From the IMG/VR virus record IMGVR_UViG_2695420863_000001: a stretch of 13,073 nt of DNA. One strand, given 5' to 3'. The notes under the pieces are model-generated. The model saw only the letters and a program-made list of their open reading frames with translations. It searched no databases and was not told where the DNA came from. This DNA comes from a virus (lineage: Duplodnaviria > Heunggongvirae > Uroviricota > Caudoviricetes). The translations under genes were made by a program, and so were the position numbers. Position 1 is the stretch's first letter, and each line of letters starts with the position of its first letter. This document shows, in pieces, positions 1 to 13,073 of this stretch.

Positions 1-479
1 AGGGAATGCCCGTTCTGCGAGGCGGTGGCAAGGGTAATGAGGTGCTTTATGACTCTGCCGCCGTTATAAGATGGTATGCCGAAAGGGATGCTGAAATTGA
101 GAACGAAAAGCTGCGCCGGGAAGTTGAAGAACTGCGGCAGGCCAGCGAGACAGATCTCCAGCCAGGGACTATTGAGTACGAACGCCATCGACTTACGCGT
201 GCGCAGGCCGACGCACAGGAACTGAAGAATGCCAGCGAAACAGGTGAGGTAATTGACACTGCATTTGCGACTTATGCCTTGTCGAAATTAACTGGGGAAG
301 TTGGAGCAATCATTGATAGTCTTCCACTTGCGATCTGTCGACAGTTTCCTGGCATGGAAAAACGGTATCAGGACTTCATTAAGATGGAGGTCAGTAAAGC
401 ATTTATTCGAGCTTACCAGATCTCAGATAACATTCCAGATATGGCTGAAAGGTATATCAAGGATAATCAGCGAAGTTAA
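1..479 (+). CDS. nu1: Terminase small subunit Nu1, 5'-partial (reading frame enters the window at base 3; stop TAA at 477-479). The N-terminal ~100 residues seen here match lambda Nu1 closely; the last ~55 residues are diverged.
   Basis: Translation MPVLRGGGKGNEVLYDSAAV...AERDAEIENEKLRREVEELRQ matches lambda Nu1 as I recall it; ORF track 6..479. Confidence 0.9.
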   Translation, partial: GMPVLRGGGKGNEVLYDSAAVIRWYAERDAEIENEKLRREVEELRQASETDLQPGTIEYERHRLTRAQADAQELKNASETGEVIDTAFATYALSKLTGEVGAIIDSLPLAICRQFPGMEKRYQDFIKMEVSKAFIRAYQISDNIPDMAERYIKDNQRS

Positions 480-535
480 AACAAATGAAACCATAGGTAG
501 GAAGAGTGCTTAGGTGGTTCTTTGTTGCTTAAAAG

Positions 536-554
536 TCGCCAGTAAAACTGGCGA
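536..554. terminator. Possible bidirectional intrinsic terminator: 7-bp stem tcgccag/ctggcga with 5-nt loop, T-rich on both sides (plus strand tagattttatttg downstream; minus strand cttttaag downstream).
   Basis: Inverted repeat read directly from sequence, lying between the nu1 stop (479) and the stop of the minus-strand gene (586). Confidence 0.35.
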
Positions 555-585
555 TAGATTTTATTTGTCAAAAGCATTTGACCTT

Positions 586-1491
586 TTAAGGTAGTGGTAC
601 TATGGATATTTTTCTGTCGTTCCCAAATGAACTTTTAAATAATTTCGCTCTTGGATACATTTTAACTAGTGATGCGACTTCATCGAACTCGCTGGCATCA
701 AAAAGAGGACCAAGTATTACAGATTTTAACTCAAAAGGGTGAAATTTTAAGTCGCTATATTGACCAGTGCTATTTGGCCTAGCGTAGGTTGAAATTCTCC
801 ACTCTCTTTCATATGCCCATTCTTCTGTTTTTATGAATATTATCTCATTATTGATATATTCAATTGACTTATTGTCTGGCATGAAAAGCAACTCGGCCAT
901 CCCTTCAGCAGTGTGAGTTAGAGGCATTTCATCTGTGTATTTCATAGGTTTGGCTATTAACCAAGCGCTATCCAGAAAGTCTACACAATCAAATTCGATA
1001 ACTATACCTTTATATTTATCGGCATAGTGATTCCACATAGGAGTGATTATAGGGCTCTCAGATAAACACAAAATCCTTCTGTTATTAAGCATTCCTCGCC
1101 AGACATCTTTCATTTCTTGTATTGCCGCAGGAGCGCCAATCCCAACTGGTGGAATGTTTACCATTTCTTGAAATCTTTCAATTAATCCTGCGGGTATGCC
1201 TAAAGGAAATGACTTTTGGAAATCACTTAGCATTGTTCTAATTCTAGGGTTTAAATTTTGTATGTCTTCTCTGGGGGTAATCAACTCCGCTATTAACTTG
1301 CGGGCTAAAGCTTTGCCAATATTAATTTCGTTAATACCAGGCATAACTTCTCTTGGAACATCAAAAGGGTCATTAAATAGGACCGGAGAACTCCATCTAA
1401 GGCTGCATGAATCAAGAACAATCTTCGCGGTATTCAACGACATATACTTATAAAATGTTGAGCGTTCATGCATTCTGTTGGGTGAGCGCAT
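586..1491 (-). CDS. Hypothetical 301-aa protein, DUF2971-like by motif (N-terminal FYKY...FNDPFD, C-terminal YEREWR). Sole gene of an AT-rich insert that replaces the phage head module. Candidate accessory or defence gene.
   Basis: Long uninterrupted minus-strand ORF in a visibly AT-rich segment; RBS-like aagagga about 5 nt upstream of the ATG at 1491; motif resemblance to DUF2971 is from memory and not verified. Confidence 0.8.
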   Translation of the reverse strand: MRSPNRMHERSTFYKYMSLNTAKIVLDSCSLRWSSPVLFNDPFDVPREVMPGINEINIGKALARKLIAELITPREDIQNLNPRIRTMLSDFQKSFPLGIPAGLIERFQEMVNIPPVGIGAPAAIQEMKDVWRGMLNNRRILCLSESPIITPMWNHYADKYKGIVIEFDCVDFLDSAWLIAKPMKYTDEMPLTHTAEGMAELLFMPDNKSIEYINNEIIFIKTEEWAYEREWRISTYARPNSTGQYSDLKFHPFELKSVILGPLFDASEFDEVASLVKMYPRAKLFKSSFGNDRKISIVPLP

Positions 1492-1528
1492 AGATTCCTC
1501 TTGTTAAATGAGTGATGGTTTTCATCCA

Positions 1529-1549
1529 TGTATTGCACGTTGTATTGCA
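1529..1549. promoter_or_regulatory. Direct repeat tgtattgca-cgt-tgtattgca in the upstream region of the minus-strand cargo gene; possible operator or promoter element.
   Basis: Exact 9-bp direct repeat spaced by 3 nt, about 40-60 bp upstream of the cargo gene start; no strong sigma70 -35/-10 pair could be assigned by eye. Confidence 0.25.
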
Positions 1550-1625
1550 TTCAAGGATTTTCCATTTCAATTCTATAGCTAAAACGTAATCAAATCATTC
1601 ACATCCTTTCATATTTGACTCATGT

Positions 1626-2416
1626 AGCCGAAGCATGAGGTGAATCCGCAGATGACCCTGCGTCGCCTGCCGGATGAAGATCCGCAGAATCTGGCGGACC
1701 CGGCTTACCGCCGCCGTCGCATCATCATGCAGAACATGCGAGACGAAGAGCTGGCCATTGCTCAGGTCGAAGAGATGCAGGCAGTTTCTGCTGTGCTTAA
1801 GGGCAAATACACCATGACCGGTGAAGCCTTCGATCCGGTTGAGGTGGATATGGGCCGCAGTGCGGCGAACAACATCACACAGTCCGGTGGTACGGAGTGG
1901 AGCAAGCGTGACAAGTCCACGTATGACCCGACCGACGATATCGAAGCCTATGCGCTGAACGCCAGCGGAGTGGTGAATATCATCGTGTTTGATCCGAAAG
2001 GCTGGGCGCTGTTCCGTTCCTTCAAAGCCGTCAAGGAGAAGCTGGATACCCGTCGCGGCTCTAATTCCGAGCTGGAGACAGCGGTAAAAGACCTGGGCGA
2101 AGCGGTGTCCTATAAGGGGATGTATGGCGATACGGCGATCGTCGTGTATTCCGGACAGTACGTGGAAAACGACGTCAAAAAGAACTTCCTTCCGGACAAC
2201 ACGATGGTGCTGGGGAACTCTCAGGCACGCGGTCTGCGCACCTATGGCTGCATTCAGGATGCGGACGCACAGCGCGAAGGTATTAACGCCTCTGCCCGCT
2301 ACCCGAAAAACTGGGTGACCACCGGCGATCCGGCGCGTGAGTTCACCATGATTCAGTCAGCACCGCTGATGCTGCTGGCTGACCCTGATGCGTTCGTGTC
2401 CGTACAACTGGCGTAA
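1626..2416 (+). pseudogene. E: Major capsid protein E, 5'-truncated remnant. Lambda-like sequence begins about 1626; the in-frame ORF is 1640..2416 (258 of ~341 codons); the upstream frame hits TAG at 1625-1627.
   Basis: Translation NPQMTLRRLPDEDPQNLADPAYRRRRIIMQNMRDEELAIAQVEEMQ...FVSVQLA matches the C-terminal ~3/4 of lambda gpE; the N-terminal ~83 codons are absent. Confidence 0.9.
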
Positions 2417-2457
2417 TCATGGCCCTTCGGGGCCATTTTCTCTCTGTGGAGGAGTCT

Positions 2458-2853
2458 ATGACGAAAGATGAACTGATTGCCCGTCTTCAGGTGCTGGGTG
2501 AGCAACTGAACCGTGATGTCAGCCTGACGGGGACGAAAGAAGAACTGGTGCTCCGTGTGGCAGAGCTGGAAGAGGAGCTTGATGACACGGATGACGCTGC
2601 CGGTCAGGACACATCTGTCAGCCCGGAAAATGCGCTGACCGGACATGAAAATGAGGTTGTATCAGCGCAGCCGGATACCGTGACTGATACGGCTGATCTG
2701 GTCACGGTTGTGGCACTGGTGACGCTGCATACTGATGCACTTCACGCCACGCGGGATGAGGCTGTGGCATTTGTGCTGCCGGGAACGGCGTTCCGTGTCT
2801 CTGCCGGTGTGTCAGCTGAAATGACAGAGCGCGGCCTGGCCAGAATGCAATAA
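2458..2853 (+). CDS. FI: FI protein (DNA packaging / head-tail assembly accessory). Start ATG at 2458 preceded by ggagg.
   Basis: MTKDELIARLQVLGEQLNRDVSLTGTKEEL... matches lambda gpFI; the upstream in-frame ATG at 2419 is less likely (no RBS; lambda start conserved at 2458). Confidence 0.9.
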   Translation: MTKDELIARLQVLGEQLNRDVSLTGTKEELVLRVAELEEELDDTDDAAGQDTSVSPENALTGHENEVVSAQPDTVTDTADLVTVVALVTLHTDALHATRDEAVAFVLPGTAFRVSAGVSAEMTERGLARMQ

Positions 2854-2864
2854 CGGGAGGCGCT

Positions 2865-3218
2865 GTGGCTGATTTCGATAACCTGTTCGATGCTGCCATT
2901 GCCCGCGCCGATGAAACGATACGCGGGTACATGGGAACGTCAGCCACCATGACATCCGGTGAGCAGTCCGGCGCAGTAATACGTGGTGTTTTTGATGACC
3001 CTGAAAATATCAGCTATGCCGGACAGGGCGTGCGCGTTGAAGGCTCCAGCCCGTCCCTGTTTGTCCGGACTGATGATGTGCGGCAGCTGCGGCGCGGCGA
3101 CACGCTGACCATCGGTGAGGAAAACTTCTGGATAGACCGGATTTCGCCGGATGATGGCGGAAGCTGTCATCTCTGGCTTGGGCGGGGCGTACCGCCTGCC
3201 GTTAACCGTCGCCGCTGA
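2865..3218 (+). CDS. FII: FII head-tail joining protein; GTG start with gggagg RBS.
   Basis: MADFDNLFDAAIARADETIRGYMGTSAT... matches lambda gpFII (117 aa). Confidence 0.92.
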   Translation: MADFDNLFDAAIARADETIRGYMGTSATMTSGEQSGAVIRGVFDDPENISYAGQGVRVEGSSPSLFVRTDDVRQLRRGDTLTIGEENFWIDRISPDDGGSCHLWLGRGVPPAVNRRR

Positions 3219-3229
3219 AAGGGGGATGT

Positions 3230-3808
3230 ATGGCCATAAAAGGTCTTGAGCAGGCCGTTGAAAACCTCAGTCGTATCAGCAGAGCGGCGGTGCCCGGTGC
3301 CGCCGCAATGGCCATTAACCGCGTTGCTTCATCCGCGATATCGCAGTCGGCGTCACAGGTTGCCCGTGAGACAAAGGTACGCCGGAAACTGGTAAAGGAA
3401 AGGGCCAGGCTGAAAAGGGCCACGGTCAAAAATCCGCAGGCCAGAATCAAGGTTAACCGGGGGGATTTGCCCGTAATAAAGCTGGGTAACGCGCGGATTG
3501 TCCTGTCCCGACGCAGGCGTCGTAAAAAGGGGCAGCGTTCAGCCCTGAAAGGTGGCGGCAGCGTGCTTGTGGTGGGAAACCGTCGTATTCCCGGCGCGTT
3601 TATTCAGCAACTGAAACATGGCCGCTGGCATGTCATGCAGCGTGTGGCCGGGAAAAACCGTTACCCCATTGATGTGGTGAAAATCCCGATGGCGGTGCCG
3701 CTGACCACGGCGTTTAAACAGAATATTGAGCGGATACGGCGTGAGCGTCTTCCGAAAGAGCTGGGCTATGCGCTGCAGCATCAACTGAGGATGGTAATAA
3801 AGCGATGA
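3230..3808 (+). CDS. Z: Z tail completion protein.
   Basis: MAIKGLEQAVENLSRIS...HQLRMVIKR matches lambda gpZ (192 aa). Confidence 0.92.
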   Translation: MAIKGLEQAVENLSRISRAAVPGAAAMAINRVASSAISQSASQVARETKVRRKLVKERARLKRATVKNPQARIKVNRGDLPVIKLGNARIVLSRRRRRKKGQRSALKGGGSVLVVGNRRIPGAFIQQLKHGRWHVMQRVAGKNRYPIDVVKIPMAVPLTTAFKQNIERIRRERLPKELGYALQHQLRMVIKR

Positions 3809-4200
3809 AACATACTGAACTCCGTGCAGCCGTACTGGATGCACTGGAGAAGCATGACACCGGGGCGACGCTTTTTGATGGTCGCCCCGCTGTTTTTGAT
3901 GAGGAAGATTTTCCGGCAATTGCCGTTTATCTCACCGGCGCTGAATACACGGGCGAAGAGCTGGACAGCGATACCTGGCAGGCGGAGCTGCATATTGAAG
4001 TTTTCCTGCCTGCTCAGGTGCCGGATTCAGAGCTGGATGCGTGGATGGAGTCCCGGATTTATCCGGTGATGAGCGATATCCCGGCACTGTCAGATTTGAT
4101 CACCAGTATGGTGGCCAGTGGCTATGACTACCGGCGCGACGATGATGCGGGCCTGTGGAGTTCAGCCGATCTGACTTATGTCATTACCTATGAAATGTGA
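3805..4200 (+). CDS. U: U tail terminator protein; start overlaps Z stop (ATGA).
   Basis: [22 protein letters not shown]...LTYVITYEM matches lambda gpU (131 aa). Confidence 0.92.
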
Positions 4201-4207
4201 GGACGCT

Positions 4208-4948
4208 ATGCCTGTACCAAATCCTACAATGCCGGTGAAAGGTGCCGGGACCACCCTGTGGGTTTATAAGGGGAGCGGTGACCCTTATGCGAACCCGCTT
4301 TCAGACGTTGACTGGTCGCGTCTGGCAAAAGTTAAAGACCTGACGCCCGGCGAACTGACCGCTGAGTCCTATGACGACAGCTATCTCGATGATAAAGATG
4401 CAGACTGGACTGCGACCGGGCAGGGGCAGAAATCTGCCGGAGATACCAGCTTCACGCTGGCGTGGATGCCCGGAGAGCAGGGGCAGCAGGCGCTGCTGGC
4501 GTGGTTTAATGAAGGTGATACCCGTGCCTATAAAATCCGCTTCCCGAACGGCACGGTCGATGTGTTCCGTGGCTGGGTCAGCAGTATCGGTAAGGCGGTG
4601 ACGGCGAAGGAAGTGATTACCCGCACGGTGAAGGTCACCAATGTGGGACGTCCGTCGATGGCAGAAGATCGCAGCACGGTAACAGCGGCAACCGGCATGA
4701 CCGTGACGCCTGCCAGCACTTCGGTGGTGAAAGGGCAGAGCACCACGCTGACCGTGGCATTCCAGCCGGAAGGCGCAACCGACAAGAGCTTCCGTGCGGT
4801 GTCAGCGGATAAAACAAAAGCCACCGTGTCGGTCAGTGGTATGACCATCACCGTGAATGGCGTTGCTGCAGGCAAGGTCAACATTCCGATTGTATCCGGT
4901 AATGGTGAGTTTGCTGCGGTTGCAGAAATCACCGTCACCGCCAGTTAA
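4208..4948 (+). CDS. V: V major tail tube protein with C-terminal Ig-like region; start at the ATG at 4208 (lambda start [12 protein letters not shown]), not the upstream ATG at 4178.
   Basis: [31 protein letters not shown]...AEITVTAS matches lambda gpV (246 aa). Confidence 0.92.
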
Positions 4949-4963
4949 TCCGGAGAGTCAGAG

Positions 4964-5386
4964 ATGTTCCTGAAAACCGAATCATTTGAACATAACGGTG
5001 TGACCGTCACGCTTTCTGAACTGTCAGCCCTGCAGCGTATTGAGCATCTCGCCCTGATGAAACGGCAGGCAGAACAGGCGGAGTCAGACAGCAACCGGAA
5101 GTTTACTGTGGAAGACGCCATCAGAACCGGCGCGTTTCTGGTGGCGATGTCCCTGTGGCATAACCATCCGCAGAAGACAAAGCAGCCTTCCATGAATGAA
5201 GCCGTTAAACAGATTGAGCAGGAAGTGCTTACCACCTGGCCCACAGAGGCAATTTCTCATGCTGAAAACGTGGTGTACCGGCTGTCTGGTATGTATGAGT
5301 TTGTGGTGAATAATGCCCCTGAACAGGCAGAGGACGCCGGGCCCGCAGAGCCTGTTTCTGCGGGAAAGTGTTCGACGGTGAGCTGA
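4964..5386 (+). CDS. G: G tail assembly chaperone.
   Basis: MFLKTESFEHNGVTVTLSELSALQRIEHL...SAGKCSTVS matches lambda gpG (140 aa). Confidence 0.92.
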   Translation: MFLKTESFEHNGVTVTLSELSALQRIEHLALMKRQAEQAESDSNRKFTVEDAIRTGAFLVAMSLWHNHPQKTKQPSMNEAVKQIEQEVLTTWPTEAISHAENVVYRLSGMYEFVVNNAPEQAEDAGPAEPVSAGKCSTVS

Positions 5387-5802
5387 GTTTTGCCCTGAAA
5401 CTGGCGCGTGAGATGGGGCGACCCGACTGGCGTGCCATGCTTGCCGGGATGTCATCCACGGAGTATGCCGACTGGCACCGCTTTTACAGTACCCATTATT
5501 TTCATGATGTTCTGCTGGATATGCACTTTTCCGGGCTGACGTACACCGTGCTCAGCCTGTTTTTCAGCGATCCGGATATGCATCCGCTGGATTTCAGTCT
5601 GCTGAACCGGCGCGAGGCTGACGAAGAGCCTGAAGATGATGTGCTGATGCAGAAAGCGGCAGGGCTTGCCGGAGGTGTCCGCTTTGGCCCGGACGGGAAT
5701 GAAGTTATCCCCGCTTCCCCGGATGTGGCGGACATGACGGAGGATGACGTAATGCTGATGACAGTATCAGAAGGGATCGCAGGAGGAGTCCGGTATGGCT
5801 GA
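4964..5802 (+). CDS. T: G-T fusion tail assembly chaperone made by -1 frameshift at 5362-5368; the T-frame part runs ~5367..5802.
   Basis: T-frame translation FDGELSFALKLAREMGRPDWRAMLAGMSSTEYADWHRFY... matches lambda gpT; the lambda G-T frameshift is established biology. Confidence 0.85.
5362..5368 (+). other. Programmed -1 ribosomal frameshift slippery heptamer G_GGA_AAG joining G to T.
   Basis: Heptamer gggaaag sits in the G frame as G GGA AAG; the -1 frame reads on as KVFDGELSFALK..., the T ORF. Confidence 0.85.
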
Positions 5803-8257
5803 ACCTGTAGGCGATCTGGTCGTTGATTTGAGTCTGGATGCGGCCAGATTTGACGAGCAGATGGCCAGAGTCAGGCGTCATTTTTCCGGTACGGAAAGTG
5901 ATGCGAAAAGAACAGCGGCAGTCGTTGAACAGTCGCTGAGCCGACAGGCGCTGGCTGCACAGAAAGCGGGGATTTCCGTCGGGCAGTATAAAGCCGCCAT
6001 GCGTATGCTGCCTGCACAGTTCACCGACGTGGCCACGCAGCTTGCAGGCGGGCAAAGTCCGTGGCTGATCCTGCTGCAACAGGGGGGGCAGGTGAAGGAC
6101 TCCTTCGGCGGGATGATCCCCATGTTCAGGGGGCTTGCCGGTGCGATCACCCTGCCGATGGTGGGGGCCACCTCGCTGGCGGTGGCGACCGGTGCGCTGG
6201 CGTATGCCTGGTATCAGGGCAACTCAACCCTGTCCGATTTCAACAAAACGCTGGTCCTTTCCGGTCATCAGTCGGGTCTGACGGCAGATCGTATGCTGGT
6301 CCTGTCCAGAGCCGGGCAGGCGGCAGGGCTGACGTTTAACCAGACCAGCGAGTCACTCAGCGCACTGGTTAAGGCGGGGGTAAGCGGTGAGGCTCAGATT
6401 GCGTCCATCAGCCAGAGTGTGGCGCGTTTCTCCTCTGCATCCGGCGTGGAGGTGGACAAGGTCGCTGAAGCCTTCGGGAAGCTGACCACAGACCCGACGT
6501 CGGGGCTGACGGCGATGGCACGCCAGTTCCATAACGTGACGGCGGAGCAGATTGCGTATGTTGCTCAGTTGCAGCGTTCCGGCGATGAAGCCGGGGCATT
6601 GCAGGCGGCGAACGAGGCCGCAACGAAAGGGTTTGATGACCAGACCCGCCGCCTGAAAGAGAACATGGGCACGCTGGAGACCTGGGCAGACAGGACTGCG
6701 CGGGCATTCAAATCCATGTGGGATGCGGTGCTGGATATTGGTCGTCCTGATACCGCGCAGGAGATGCTGATTAAGGCAGAGGCTGCGTTTAAGAAAGCAG
6801 ACGACATCTGGAATCTGCGCAAGGATGATTATTTTGTTAACGATGAAGCGCGGGCGCGTTACTGGGATGATCGTGAAAAGGCCCGTCTTGCGCTTGAAGC
6901 CGCCCGAAAGAAGGCTGAGCAGCAGACTCAACAGGACAAAAATGCGCAGCAGCAGAGCGATACCGAAGCGTCACGGCTGAAATATACCGAAGAGGCGCAG
7001 AAGGCTTACGAACGGCTGCAGACACCGCTGGAGAAATATACCGCCCGTCAGGAAGAACTGAACAAGGCACTGAAAGACGGGAAAATCCTGCAGGCAGATT
7101 ACAACACGCTGATGGCGGCGGCGAAAAAGGATTATGAAGCGACGCTGAAAAAGCCGAAACAGTCCGGCGTGAAAGTGTCTGCGGGCGATCGTCAGGAAGA
7201 CAGTGCTCATGCTGCCCTGCTGACGCTTCAGGCAGAACTCCGGACGCTGGAGAAGCATGCCGGAGCAAATGAGAAAATCAGCCAGCAGCGCCGGGATTTG
7301 TGGAAGGCGGAGAGTCAGTTCGCGGTACTGGAGGAGGCGGCGCAACGTCGCCAGCTGTCTGCACAGGAGAAATCCCTGCTGGCGCATAAAGATGAGACGC
7401 TGGAGTACAAACGCCAGCTGGCTGCACTTGGCGACAAGGTTACGTATCAGGAGCGCCTGAACGCGCTGGCGCAGCAGGCGGATAAATTCGCACAGCAGCA
7501 ACGGGCAAAACGGGCCGCCATTGATGCGAAAAGCCGGGGGCTGACTGACCGGCAGGCAGAACGGGAAGCCACGGAACAGCGCCTGAAGGAACAGTATGGC
7601 GATAATCCGCTGGCGCTGAATAACATCATGTCAGAGCAGAAAAAGACCTGGGCGGCTGAAGACCAGCTTCGCGGGAACTGGATGGCAGGCCTGAAGTCCG
7701 GCTGGAGTGAGTGGGAAGAGAGCGCCACGGACAGTATGTCGCAGGTAAAAAGTGCAGCCACGCAGACCTTTGATGGTATTGCACAGAATATGGCGGCGAT
7801 GCTGACCGGCAGTGAGCAGAACTGGCGCAGCTTCACCCGTTCCGTGCTGTCCATGATGACAGAAATTCTGCTTAAGCAGGCAATGGTGGGGATTGTCGGG
7901 AGTATCGGCAGCGCCATTGGCGGGGCTGTTGGTGGCGGCGCATCCGCGTCAGGCGGTACAGCCATTCAGGCCGCTGCGGCGAAATTCCATTTTGCAACCG
8001 GAGGATTTACGGGAACCGGCGGCAAATATGAGCCAGCGGGGATTGTTCACCGTGGTGAGTTTGTCTTCACGAAGGAGGCAACCAGCCGGATTGGCGTGGG
8101 GAATCTTTACCGGCTGATGCGCGGCTATGCCACCGGCGGTTATGTCGGTACACCGGGCAGCATGGCAGACAGCCGGTCGCAGGCGTCCGGGACGTTTGAG
8201 CAGAATAACCATGTGGTGATTAACAACGACGGCACGAACACCCGACGTCGGGACTGA
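5795..8257 (+). pseudogene. H: Tape measure protein H, copy A: H codons 1-815 followed by 5 junk codons (TRRRD) and a stop, caused by a frame-breaking junction at 8239/8240. Truncated relative to the ~853-aa lambda gpH.
   Basis: MAEPVGDLVVDLSLDAARFDEQMARVRRHF... matches lambda gpH up to ...NNHVVINNDGTN, then departs; the expected continuation GQIGP... is seen only in copies B and C. Confidence 0.85.
6768..7975 (+). repeat. Direct repeat, copy 1 of ~1.2 kb; near-identical to 10181..11388 (offset 3413 bp).
   Basis: Identical minus-strand ORF translations in the track (6837..7268 = 10250..10681; 6971..7501 = 10384..10914; 7447..7965 = 10860..11378) plus by-eye comparison. Confidence 0.85.
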
Positions 8258-10116
8258 TGGCGATGGCGCGCCAGTTCCGTAACGTGACGGCAGAGCAGAT
8301 TGCGTATGTTGCACAGCTGCAGCGTTCCGGAGACGAGGCCGGGGCATTGCAGGCGGCGAACGATATCGCCACGAAAGGCTTTGATGAGCAGACCCGTCGC
8401 CTGAAAGAAAACATGGGAACACTGGAGACCTGGGCGGATAAAACAGGGAAGGCATTCAAATCGATGTGGGATGCCATTCTGGATATCGGTCGTCCTGAAT
8501 CCTCAGCGGATATGCTCGCCAGTGCGCAGAAGGCATTTGATGAGGCGGATAAAAAATGGCAGTGGTACCAGAGCCGGAGCCAGCGCCGGGGAAAGACCTC
8601 CTCTTTTCGTGCGAACCTTCAGGGGGCATGGGATGACAGGGAAAATGCCCGTCTGGGTCTGGCAGCGGCCACGCTGCAGTCGGATATGGAAAAAGCCGGT
8701 GAACTGGCGGCAAGGGACCGGGCTGAGCGTGAGGCGTCACAGCTGAAGTATACCGGAGAGGCGCAGAAGGCGTATGAGCGCCTGCAGACGCCGCTGGATA
8801 AATATACCGCCCGTCAGAAAGAGCTGAATAAGGCCCTGAAAGACGGAAAAATCCTGCAGGCGGATTACAACACGCTGATGGCGTCGGCAAAAAAGGATTA
8901 TGAATCGACGCTGAAAAAGCCGTCCGGTGTGAAGGTGTCTGCCGGTGAGCGCCAGGAAGACCGGGCGCATGCAGCCATGCTGGCGCTTGAAACCGAGCTC
9001 AGGACGCTGGAAAAACACAGCGGTGTGAATGAGAAAATCAGCCAGCAGCGCCGGGATTTATGGGAAGCGGAAAATCAGTATGTGGTCCTGAAAGAGGCCG
9101 CCACGAAACGGCAGTTATCTGAGCAGGAAAAATCCCTGCTGGCTCATGAGAAAGAGACGCTGGAGTACAAACGCCAGCTGGCTGAGCTGGGAGACAAGAT
9201 TGAACACCAGAAGCGGCTGAATGAGCTGGCACAGCAGGCGGCGCGGTTTGAACAGCAGCAGAGCGCGAAGCAGGCGGCAATCAGCGCAAAAGCCCGCGGC
9301 CTCACTGACCGTCAGGCGCAGCGGGAGTCGGAAGAGCAGCGCCTTCGTGAGGTGTACGGTGATAATCCGGCTGCGCTGGCGAAGGCCACATCTGCACTGA
9401 AGAACACCTGGTCTGCGGAGGAGCAGCTTCGTGGAAGCTGGATGGCCGGGATGAAGTCCGGCTGGGGCGAGTGGGCGGAAAGTGCGACGGACAGTTTTTC
9501 GCAGGTTAAAAACGCGGCCACGCAGACCTTTGACGGTATTGCACAGAATATGGCAGCGATGCTGACCGGCAGCGAACAGAACTGGCGGGGATTCACCCGT
9601 TCGGTGCTCTCCATGCTGACAGAAATTCTGCTTAAGCAGGCAATGGTGGGGATTGTCGGGAGTATCGGCAGCGCCATTGGCGGGGCTGTTGGTGGCGGCG
9701 CATCCGCGTCAGGCGGTACAGCCATTCAGGCCGCTACGGCGAAATTCCATTTTGCAACCGGAGGATTTACGGGAACCGGCGGCAAATATGAGCCAGCGGG
9801 AATTGTTCACCGCGGTGAATTCGTCTTCACGAAGGAGGCAACCAGCCGGATTGGCGTGGGGAATCTCTACCGGCTGATGCGCGGCTATGCCACCGGCGGT
9901 TATGTCGGTACACCGGGCAGCATGGCGGACAGCCGGTCGCAGGCGTCCGGGACGTTTGAGCAGAATAACCATGTGGTGATTAACAACGACGGCACGAACG
10001 GTCAGATAGGGCCACAGGCACTGAAGGCTGTTTATGACGTAGCCCGTAAGGCGGCAATGGATGTTGTGACCGGGCAGATGCGCGATGGTGGTCTGTTCTC
10101 CGGAGGTGGACGATGA
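8240..10116 (+). pseudogene. H: Tape measure H, copy B: internal fragment from about H codon 233 (TDPTSGLTAMARQF) to the native C-terminus, out of frame with copy A. Diverged allele with a strongly divergent central block and small indels.
   Basis: ORF 8257..10116 translation parallels copy A from ARQFRNVTAEQIAYVAQLQRSGDEAGALQAAN... and ends with the lambda H C-terminus ...QMRDGGLFSGGGR; lacks the H N-terminus. Confidence 0.8.
9621..10116 (+). repeat. Direct repeat of the H 3' end; apparently identical to 11274..11769 (offset 1653 bp).
   Basis: Identical track ORFs 9653..9877 and 11306..11530; by-eye comparison of flanking bases. Confidence 0.8.
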
Positions 10117-10187
10117 AAACCTTCCGCTGGAAAGTGAAACCCGGTATGGATGTGGCTTCGGCCCCTTCTGTAAGAAAGGATGATTAA
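10113..10187 (+). pseudogene. M: M tail protein fragment: first 22 codons of M (MKTFRWKVKPGMDVASAPSVRK), then the junction into H copy C and a stop after 2 further codons.
   Basis: Bases 10113-10179 match the start of the intact M at 11766-11832; the ATG overlaps the copy-B stop exactly as in the intact H/M junction. Confidence 0.8.
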
Positions 10188-11388
10188 GGCAGAGGCTGCG
10201 TTTAAGAAAGCAGACGACATCTGGAATCTGCGCAAGGATGATTATTTTGTTAACGATGAAGCGCGGGCGCGTTACTGGGATGATCGTGAAAAGGCCCGTC
10301 TTGCGCTTGAAGCCGCCCGAAAGAAGGCTGAGCAGCAGACTCAACAGGACAAAAATGCGCAGCAGCAGAGCGATACCGAAGCGTCACGGCTGAAATATAC
10401 CGAAGAGGCGCAGAAGGCTTACGAACGGCTGCAGACACCGCTGGAGAAATATACCGCCCGTCAGGAAGAACTGAACAAGGCACTGAAAGACGGGAAAATC
10501 CTGCAGGCAGATTACAACACGCTGATGGCGGCGGCGAAAAAGGATTATGAAGCGACGCTGAAAAAGCCGAAACAGTCCGGCGTGAAAGTGTCTGCGGGCG
10601 ATCGTCAGGAAGACAGTGCTCATGCTGCCCTGCTGACGCTTCAGGCAGAACTCCGGACGCTGGAGAAGCATGCCGGAGCAAATGAGAAAATCAGCCAGCA
10701 GCGCCGGGATTTGTGGAAGGCGGAGAGTCAGTTCGCGGTACTGGAGGAGGCGGCGCAACGTCGCCAGCTGTCTGCACAGGAGAAATCCCTGCTGGCGCAT
10801 AAAGATGAGACGCTGGAGTACAAACGCCAGCTGGCTGCACTTGGCGACAAGGTTACGTATCAGGAGCGCCTGAACGCGCTGGCGCAGCAGGCGGATAAAT
10901 TCGCACAGCAGCAACGGGCAAAACGGGCCGCCATTGATGCGAAAAGCCGGGGGCTGACTGACCGGCAGGCAGAACGGGAAGCCACGGAACAGCGCCTGAA
11001 GGAACAGTATGGCGATAATCCGCTGGCGCTGAATAACATCATGTCAGAGCAGAAAAAGACCTGGGCGGCTGAAGACCAGCTTCGCGGGAACTGGATGGCA
11101 GGCCTGAAGTCCGGCTGGAGTGAGTGGGAAGAGAGCGCCACGGACAGTATGTCGCAGGTAAAAAGTGCAGCCACGCAGACCTTTGATGGTATTGCACAGA
11201 ATATGGCGGCGATGCTGACCGGCAGTGAGCAGAACTGGCGCAGCTTCACCCGTTCCGTGCTGTCCATGATGACAGAAATTCTGCTTAAGCAGGCAATGGT
11301 GGGGATTGTCGGGAGTATCGGCAGCGCCATTGGCGGGGCTGTTGGTGGCGGCGCATCCGCGTCAGGCGGTACAGCCATTCAGGCCGCT
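10181..11388 (+). repeat. Direct repeat, copy 2; near-identical to 6768..7975.
   Basis: As above. Confidence 0.85.
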
Positions 11389-11769
11389 ACGGCGAAATTC
11401 CATTTTGCAACCGGAGGATTTACGGGAACCGGCGGCAAATATGAGCCAGCGGGAATTGTTCACCGCGGTGAATTCGTCTTCACGAAGGAGGCAACCAGCC
11501 GGATTGGCGTGGGGAATCTCTACCGGCTGATGCGCGGCTATGCCACCGGCGGTTATGTCGGTACACCGGGCAGCATGGCGGACAGCCGGTCGCAGGCGTC
11601 CGGGACGTTTGAGCAGAATAACCATGTGGTGATTAACAACGACGGCACGAACGGTCAGATAGGGCCACAGGCACTGAAGGCTGTTTATGACGTAGCCCGT
11701 AAGGCGGCAATGGATGTTGTGACCGGGCAGATGCGCGATGGTGGTCTGTTCTCCGGAGGTGGACGATGA
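10181..11769 (+). pseudogene. H: Tape measure H, copy C: fragment from about H codon 324 (LIKAEAAFKKADD) to the native C-terminus. Copy-A-like in its 5' ~1.1 kb and copy-B-like in its last ~0.4 kb.
   Basis: ORF 10180..11769; reverse-strand ORFs in the track are identical between A and C at a constant offset of 3413 bp and between B and C at offset 1653 bp. Confidence 0.8.
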
Positions 11770-12095
11770 AAACCTTCCGCTGGAAAGTGAAACCCGGTAT
11801 GGATGTGGCTTCGGCCCCTTCTGTAAGAAAGGTGCGCTTTGGTGATGGTTATTTCCAGCGAGCGCCTGCCGGGCTGAATGCCAACCTGAAAACGTACAGC
11901 GTGACGCTTTCTGTCCCCCGTGAGGAGGCCACGGTACTGGAGTCGTTTCTGGCTGAGCACGGGGGCTGGAAAGCCTTTCTGTGGACGCCGCCTTATGAGT
12001 GGCGGCAGATAAAGGTGACCTGCGCAAAATGGTCGTCGCGGGTCAGTATGCTGCGTGTTGAGTTCAGCGCAGAGTTTGAACAGGTGGTTAACTGA
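11766..12095 (+). CDS. M: M tail tip assembly protein (intact); start overlaps H copy C stop.
   Basis: MKTFRWKVKPGMDVASAPSVRKVRFGDGYFQRAPAGLNANLKTYSVTLSVP... matches lambda gpM (109 aa). Confidence 0.92.
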   Translation: MKTFRWKVKPGMDVASAPSVRKVRFGDGYFQRAPAGLNANLKTYSVTLSVPREEATVLESFLAEHGGWKAFLWTPPYEWRQIKVTCAKWSSRVSMLRVEFSAEFEQVVN

Positions 12096-12793
12096 TGCAG
12101 GATATCCGGCAGGAAACACTGAATGAATGCACCCGTGCGGAGCAGTCGGCCAGCGTGGTGCTCTGGGAAATCGACCTGACAGAGGTCGGTGGAGAACGTT
12201 ATTTTTTCTGTAATCAGCAGAACGAAAAAGGTGAGCCGGTCACCTGGCAGGGGCGACAGTATCAGCCGTATCCCATTCAGGGGAGTGGTTTTGAACTGAA
12301 TGGCAAAGGCACCAGTACGCGCCCCACGCTGGCAGTCTCTAACCTGTACGGCATGGTCACCGGGATGGCGGAAGATCTGCAGAGTCTGGTCGGCGGAACG
12401 GTGGTCCGGCGTAAGGTTTATGCCCGTTTTCTGGATGCAGTGAACTTCGTCAACGGAAACAGCGACGCCGATCCGGAGCAGGAGGTGATCAGCCGCTGGC
12501 GCATCGAGCAGTGCAGCGAACTGAGCGCGGTGAGTGCCTCCTTTGTACTGTCCACGCCGACTGAAACGGATGGCGCTGTTTTTCCGGGTCGTATCATGCT
12601 GGCCAACACCTGCACCTGGACCTATCGCGGCGATGAGTGCGGTTATCACGGTCCGGCTGTCGCGGATGAATATGACCAGCCGACGTCCGATATCACGAAG
12701 GATAAATGCAGCAAATGCCTGAGTGGCTGTAAGTTCCGCAATAATGTCGGCAACTTTGGCGGCTTCCTTTCCATTAACAAACTTTCGCAGTAA
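12095..12793 (+). CDS. L: L tail tip assembly protein; start overlaps M stop (TGATG).
   Basis: MQDIRQETLNECTRAEQSASVVLWEIDLTEVGGERYFFCN... matches lambda gpL (232 aa). Confidence 0.92.
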   Translation: MQDIRQETLNECTRAEQSASVVLWEIDLTEVGGERYFFCNQQNEKGEPVTWQGRQYQPYPIQGSGFELNGKGTSTRPTLAVSNLYGMVTGMAEDLQSLVGGTVVRRKVYARFLDAVNFVNGNSDADPEQEVISRWRIEQCSELSAVSASFVLSTPTETDGAVFPGRIMLANTCTWTYRGDECGYHGPAVADEYDQPTSDITKDKCSKCLSGCKFRNNVGNFGGFLSINKLSQ

Positions 12794-12798
12794 ATCCC

Positions 12799-13073
12799 AT
12801 GACAGAGACAGAATCAGCGATTCTGGCGCACGCCCGGCGATGTGCGCCAGCGGAGTCGTGCGGCTTCGTGGTGAGAACGCCGGAAGGGGAAAGATATTTT
12901 CCCTGTGTGAATATCTCCGGTGAGCCGGAGGCGTATTTCCGTATGGCTCCGGAGGACTGGCTGCAGGCAGAGATGCAGGGTGAGATTGTGGCGCTGGTCC
13001 ACAGTCACCCCGGTGGTCTGCCCTGGCTGAGTGAGGCCGACCGGCGGCTGCAGGTGCAGAGTGATTTGCCGTG
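12799..13073 (+). CDS. K: K tail assembly protein, 3'-partial (runs off the window end).
   Basis: Translation from the ATG at 12799, MTETESAILAHARRCAPAESCGFVVRTPEGERYFPCVNISGEPEAYFRMAPEDW..., matches the lambda gpK N-terminus. Confidence 0.85.
   Translation, partial: MTETESAILAHARRCAPAESCGFVVRTPEGERYFPCVNISGEPEAYFRMAPEDWLQAEMQGEIVALVHSHPGGLPWLSEADRRLQVQSDLP

Follow-up and report, generated by a model that had tools for sequence, protein, structure and literature searches.

Does the tape-measure gene H of a lambda-like tail module really occur as three broken copies in the stretch of DNA analysed here (13,073 nucleotides in all, called the window below), or does it only appear so in the sequence as displayed? 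Read from its letters, the locus had been taken for three partial tandem copies of H with frame-breaking junctions and no intact H, that is, for a rearranged locus, and a collapse of two related prophages in a short-read assembly had been offered as a fallback. We compared the window with itself, with the record that contains it and with related prophages in other genomes. The comparison makes it highly probable that the apparent triplicated, broken H consists of three separately assembled pieces of two related prophages, which were strung together by a scaffolder. The blocks themselves are real sequence, but the data do not demonstrate any "rearrangement" of the genome.

Repeat architecture of the H locus

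The existence of three H-derived blocks, as laid out in the sequence-only reading, was borne out by self-BLAST. The segment 10181-11652 repeats 6768-8239 at 99.5% identity, with 7 mismatches in 1472 nt and 0 gaps; in addition, 8731-10179 matches 10378-11832 at 87%, and 8240-8516 matches 6492-6768 at 85.6%. As displayed, the plus strand carries three H-derived ORFs, at 5795-8257 (820 aa), 8257-10116 (619 aa) and 10180-11769 (529 aa), and on the same strand the ORF of M (11766-12095) lies 3' of the third one and is followed by that of L (12095-12793). In Pfam searches the N-terminal domain TMP_2 (PF06791, E = 3e-69) was found in the first of the H-derived ORFs only, and Tape_meas_lam_C (PF09718) in all three, and the third ORF aligns almost unchanged with residues 325-853 of the solved lambda gpH (PDB 8iyk, chain H). 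Judged by their sequence, all three blocks are pieces of tape-measure genes of the lambda gpH type. The record as written has no uninterrupted ORF of ~853-857 codons between T and M, and there is an N at both breaks.

The two junctions in the source record

The whole window corresponds to record CYFL01000051.1 (1-13073, our locus L025), which is part of the Escherichia coli draft assembly GCA_001285685.1; in the literature, the accession led to an unrelated paper only. Direct comparison of the two gave exactly two mismatching positions, namely 8240 and 10180, where the record has N and the window has 'a', and these are the only Ns of the record. Position 8240 is thus a gap placeholder at what had been read as junction 1; position 10180 is another at junction 2, and the 'a' displayed there makes the apparent ATG of the third ORF. 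Since both apparent junctions are N in the record, the bases of either junction were never sequenced. The three blocks are adjacent in the scaffold only, and their joining in DNA is not demonstrated.

With this the "frame-breaking junctions" lose their basis. The ORFs of 820, 619 and 529 aa are present in the window as they had been described, whereas the exact ends of the first and the third depend on N being read as A, as do the TRRRD-stop of the first ORF and the ATG at 10180. Exact protein look-ups gave no match for any of the three window products; what did match was a 617-aa variant, the product of 8263-10116, which is CTZ30954.1 ("Minor tail protein precursor H") and was found on CYFL01000051.1 only. 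The look-up of the 820-aa product was without match because, in the record, one codon of the 820-residue gene contains the N, and those of the 619- and 529-aa products because the record calls these genes from other starts, 8263 and 10525, respectively.

Origin of the three blocks

Block 1 (1-8239, plus strand) belongs to a prophage here called X and extends from Nu1, which is cut by the record start, to nt 1-2445 of the H gene of X (5795-8239), which form the end of the block; the gene order is Nu1, DUF2971 (on the minus strand), a 5'-truncated E, FI, FII, Z, U, V, G, T and H. Against an X locus in another genome (L017, CP010238.1), positions 1-8239 show 99.95% identity (4 mismatches in 8239 nt) and the H part is identical at 2445/2445 positions, and the H of that locus is a single gene of 853 aa. 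Block 2 (8241-10179, plus strand) comes from a second prophage, Y, and contains nt 699-2574 of its H followed by the first 67 nt of its M, a 5' fragment at 10113-10179 with which the block ends. Window positions 8240-10179 are identical at 1940/1940 positions to 8128-10067 of a Y locus (L013, CP170299.1), where H is a single gene of 857 aa and is followed by an intact M. The 'a' displayed at 8240 agrees with Y by chance.

Block 3 (10181-13073, plus strand) begins with X-type H, nt 974-2181, and is Y-type from there to the record end. Its left part (10181-11388, plus strand) is an exact second copy of 6768-7975, being identical at 1208/1208 positions both to that segment and to the X locus. Its right part (11270-13073, plus strand) comprises the 3' end of H, M, L and the start of K (12799-13073, plus strand, Y-type and truncated by the record end), and is identical at 1804/1804 positions to 9505-11308 of the Y locus; furthermore, 9617-10179 equals 11270-11832 exactly over 563 nt. 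The change from X to Y inside this block falls within a stretch of 119 nt that is identical in three copies (7857-7975, 9617-9735 and 11270-11388). All 7 differences between the first and the third copy of H lie in the last 264 nt, where the third agrees with the second. Since the third copy is X-type and then Y-type throughout, it is without any sequence of its own.

Over H, every block is therefore 100% identical to a natural prophage, of type X or Y, with one intact H. Set out along the genes, block 1 spans H 1-2445 (X), block 2 runs from H 699 to M 67 (Y), and block 3 starts at H 974 (X, then Y), so that they overlap one another by ~1.7 kb each, as would be expected if contigs from two paralogous loci had been laid in series for want of a possible overlap.

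Prophages X and Y in related strains

Both in the record and in the relatives, X is a lambda-like remnant in which A, the 5' part of E and the head genes between them are missing. Y is represented by complete-looking prophages in which an H gene of 857 aa has downstream of it an M with exactly the protein sequence of the window. The best matches found for the window in complete E. coli genomes cover ~9,660 bp, corresponding to the window minus 3,413 bp, and they have a single H. It is most likely, as inferred from these relatives, that the strain carries an X remnant and a Y prophage with one ordinary H each. With an N at both joints and one intact H in each of the X and Y relatives, the claim that there is "no intact H" finds no support; nor does that of a rearranged locus with a probably non-functional tail module, its junctions being gap placeholders. 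Because X is already without head genes, its tail module was never part of a complete phage, with or without an intact H.

Block ends and sequence forks

Regarding the places where the blocks end, block 1 stops at 8239, which is 3 nt before the first difference between X and Y and follows an identical run of 74 nt, and the record itself stops at 13073, again 3 nt before an X/Y difference and after an identical run of 70 nt. Judged by its sequence context, position 8239 resembles the usual end of a contig at a fork. The only property common to these two ends is "end of identical run minus 2 nt". A single de Bruijn k for all block ends was considered and rejected, as 8239 would require k = 73 and 13073 would require k = 69. 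Between the X and Y alleles compared, no fork was found at the right end of block 2 (10179, M nt 67) or at the left end of block 3 (10181, H nt 974). The record start lies inside the cos-Nu1 region that is common to prophages, and two draft contigs of X (L023 and L024) start there too.

Search for the joints in other sequences

Neither joint occurs in any of the 5,426 complete E. coli genomes searched (absent from 5,426/5,426). Exact 32-mers of both joints, which included the substituted A, gave no match in genome, viral and metagenome collections, and these scans are uninformative because each pattern held A in place of N. In the displayed letters, joint 1 (8239|8240) is blunt, its two sides are out of register and no microhomology was found at it, and joint 2 has a "TG" microhomology plus one "filler" base, the a at 10180 that creates an ATG. 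A reading of the joints in terms of microhomology is meaningless, since the "filler" base is N. Two further ideas, translational coupling through the TGATG at 8255-8259 and an AAGGA-ATG start at 10180, were rejected for depending on an N shown as A.

The order of the blocks was also considered. Two block orders are possible, and their k-mer content does not differ at any of the k tested, the largest being 127; by construction, this identity extends to the length of the 1,208-nt repeat. Short reads thus cannot fix the order. The alternative order contains an intact H of 853 codons.

A probable scaffolding origin of the apparent triplication

Since there is an N at both supposed breakpoints and the blocks come from two prophages, the structure is best taken as an assembly artefact, and the following course of events would account for it. 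The strain would have at least two lambda-like prophages, the head-less remnant X and the prophage Y, whose H, M, L and K genes have in common exactly matching stretches of 70-125 nt, at which contigs would break or switch from one prophage to the other. Three contigs that overlap in H coordinates would have been laid in series on the evidence of read pairs, and as no overlap could be made between them, a single N would have been left at each joint. The third of these contigs would be a path along X that switched to Y inside the shared stretch of 119 nt. Display of the Ns as A would then have given rise to two apparent blunt, out-of-frame junctions. What marks a scaffold mis-join is what the record has: a gap placeholder exactly at each joint and nowhere else, and joined blocks which overlap in gene coordinates and derive from different paralogous loci. 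The fallback of an assembly artefact was right in kind, although the contigs, paralogous and overlapping, would have been scaffolded in series and not collapsed.

We infer that GCA_001285685.1 was made by short-read assembly with a scaffolding or gap-filling step, on the basis of its ENA-style accessions, a product name of the Prokka type, Ns that stand singly and record ends that lie in repeats. Greedy scaffolding with gap filling can make false joins, according to its users (PMC5320598), and an inserted single N is regarded as a sign of an anomaly in construction (PMC5902842). Like the false joins of short-read bacterial drafts made with Velvet, SSPACE and GapFiller (Page et al. 2016, PMC5320598), the window has overlapping contigs in series, a single N per joint and, at 8239 and at the record end, forks between near-identical repeats, and it is a short record with repeats at both ends. 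The redundancy between the blocks, 1.2 kb and 0.56 kb, is however larger than in a plain de Bruijn contig set, which suggests an extension of the contig edges during gap filling.

In comparison with lambda gpH (TMP_2 plus Tape_meas_lam_C; 8iyk, chain H), all three blocks are of the same gene type, but none is a whole gene, while relatives have whole alleles of 853 and 857 aa. Deletions and duplications within the tape-measure gene that keep the frame change the tail length (Katsura & Hendrix 1984, as cited in PMC5099701), and natural H variants have lengths of 874, 903 and 953 aa. The window resembles such true length changes in having repeated H sequence within one locus; however, those are in-frame, sequenced and heritable, whereas the joints here are unsequenced placeholders. 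Strain C3 (NZ_CP010119.1), whose H is annotated as frameshifted with ~800 bp missing, provides a truly inactivated H in a finished genome, and there the change is a simple deletion, in contrast to a triplication with N joints in a draft record.

Real rearrangements as alternatives

The best of the alternatives, and still a very improbable one, is that the block order is real: a duplication-insertion would have placed a Y fragment and a second partial copy of X in the H of X, for example because replication switched templates between the two prophages of the cell or because a recombinant circle of 3.4 kb integrated there. Only one or a few bases per joint would then have been left unread, and H would be broken in an already defective prophage. 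Serial placement needs support from read pairs, which implies that some physical linkage in this order was seen, but exact stretches shared by X and Y can also produce such links. The joints are non-homologous, as expected from illegitimate recombination, and the 1.2-kb and 0.56-kb segments each occur twice in the record; yet both joints are N, hence there is no junction sequence and no novel junction at the level of bases. The third copy has no unique base, each block is a natural allele over its H, and block 1 stops at the same kind of X/Y fork as the record end. Broken H genes do exist in nature, as the ~800-bp internal deletion of strain C3 exemplifies, but the present structure was in no other genome searched and so does not recur, and to make it would take two illegitimate switches and one homologous switch at one locus. 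In its specific form, an X-Y-X-Y template switching between two lambdoid prophages of one cell, observed before selection could eliminate the product, this explanation is equally far from probable; if it were true, the window would hold a raw product of illegitimate inter-phage recombination in an essential tail gene.

Slightly less plausible again is that real novel joints exist in some other arrangement and the scaffold threads them wrongly, for instance after X and Y, at two sites of the chromosome, had exchanged sequence unequally, or with an intact 853-codon H first and then the M fragment and H debris before M. The equal k-mer content of the alternative order, together with the intact 853-aa H in it, is in favour of such an arrangement, and exchange between prophages is well documented (PMC3945230); against this, no junction was sequenced, so that nothing demands novel joints. 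A real rearrangement of any kind, with its joint bases unread, has only a slim chance in all, and if real it would be a one-off lesion in a prophage already without head genes. With both joints recognised as N, there was no further need for several mechanisms that had been considered: two tandem duplications in succession, one event of template switching (from X at H2445 to Y at H698, from M67 to X at H974, and finally by homology to Y), a circle of 3,413 bp that integrated, and a reciprocal but unequal exchange involving the loci of two prophages.

Conclusions

With the stringing together of separately assembled X and Y pieces as the preferred explanation, biologically nothing new follows from the H locus. 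What the case does provide is a caution: an N shown as A turned two scaffold gaps into apparent frame-breaking recombination junctions, and for findings that rest on a junction, a frameshift or a new start codon the source record needs to be checked for Ns.

N positions of the deposited record

At the two positions of the window where the supposed junctions of H, the gpH-type tail tape-measure gene, had been placed (8240 and 10180), the sequence displays an 'a' where the deposited record CYFL01000051.1 has N. The same substitution of 'a' for N may create false junctions, frameshifts or start codons in other windows.

Hybrid composition of prophage X

The defective lambda-like prophage from which window 1-8239 derives, referred to here as prophage X, is a hybrid, and its composite character is seen in window 1-2416 and in positions 1-8250 of L017, the locus of the same type in CP010238.1. 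Upstream of Nu1, this stretch of L017 carries DUF4222, a D5_N/DUF5906 primase, SSB, a second, 346-aa capsid gene of E-like type, a gene for head decoration, and AlpA, a gene set which is satellite-like or PICI-like. Where lambda has gene A through the 5' portion of E, prophage X has instead a DUF2971 gene that reads in the opposite direction, and the tail genes Z to J are intact. The DUF2971 ORF (window 586-1491, minus strand) is 301 aa long in the window, in L017 and in the two draft contigs of prophage X, L023 and L024, whereas the annotation of strain ECA64 gives it 252 aa (759 bp); the two lengths reflect either a different choice of start codon or a difference at the 5' end. Among complete E. 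coli genomes, 2,001 have a match over at least 80% of window 1-8239.

Damage and length variation in tail genes

In the finished genome of strain C3 (NZ_CP010119.1), the annotation marks the tape-measure gene of an otherwise complete-looking prophage (L004 5303-7068) as frameshifted, and the gene falls about 800 bp short of its normal length. The tail terminator gene U is broken by insertion sequences in two prophages of the second lambda-like type, Y (L002 5572-6678 and L003 5023-6679), and the elements differ, one being IS200C and the other ISEc31.

One entry attributed to the fungus Trichophyton mentagrophytes is a 1,307-aa 'tape measure protein' (P0005). This protein contains V, G, T and H domains and shows 98% identity to E. 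coli H; its most likely origin is contamination of the fungal assembly by bacterial or phage DNA, with fused gene calls.

In E. coli itself, gpH-type tape-measure proteins occur naturally at lengths of 874, 903 and 953 aa (P0001, P0002, P0008, P0009 and P0014). Since these share 86-94% identity with the 853-aa form across its full length, the comparison suggests that they are in-frame internal expansions of H, which, if true, would predict longer tails.
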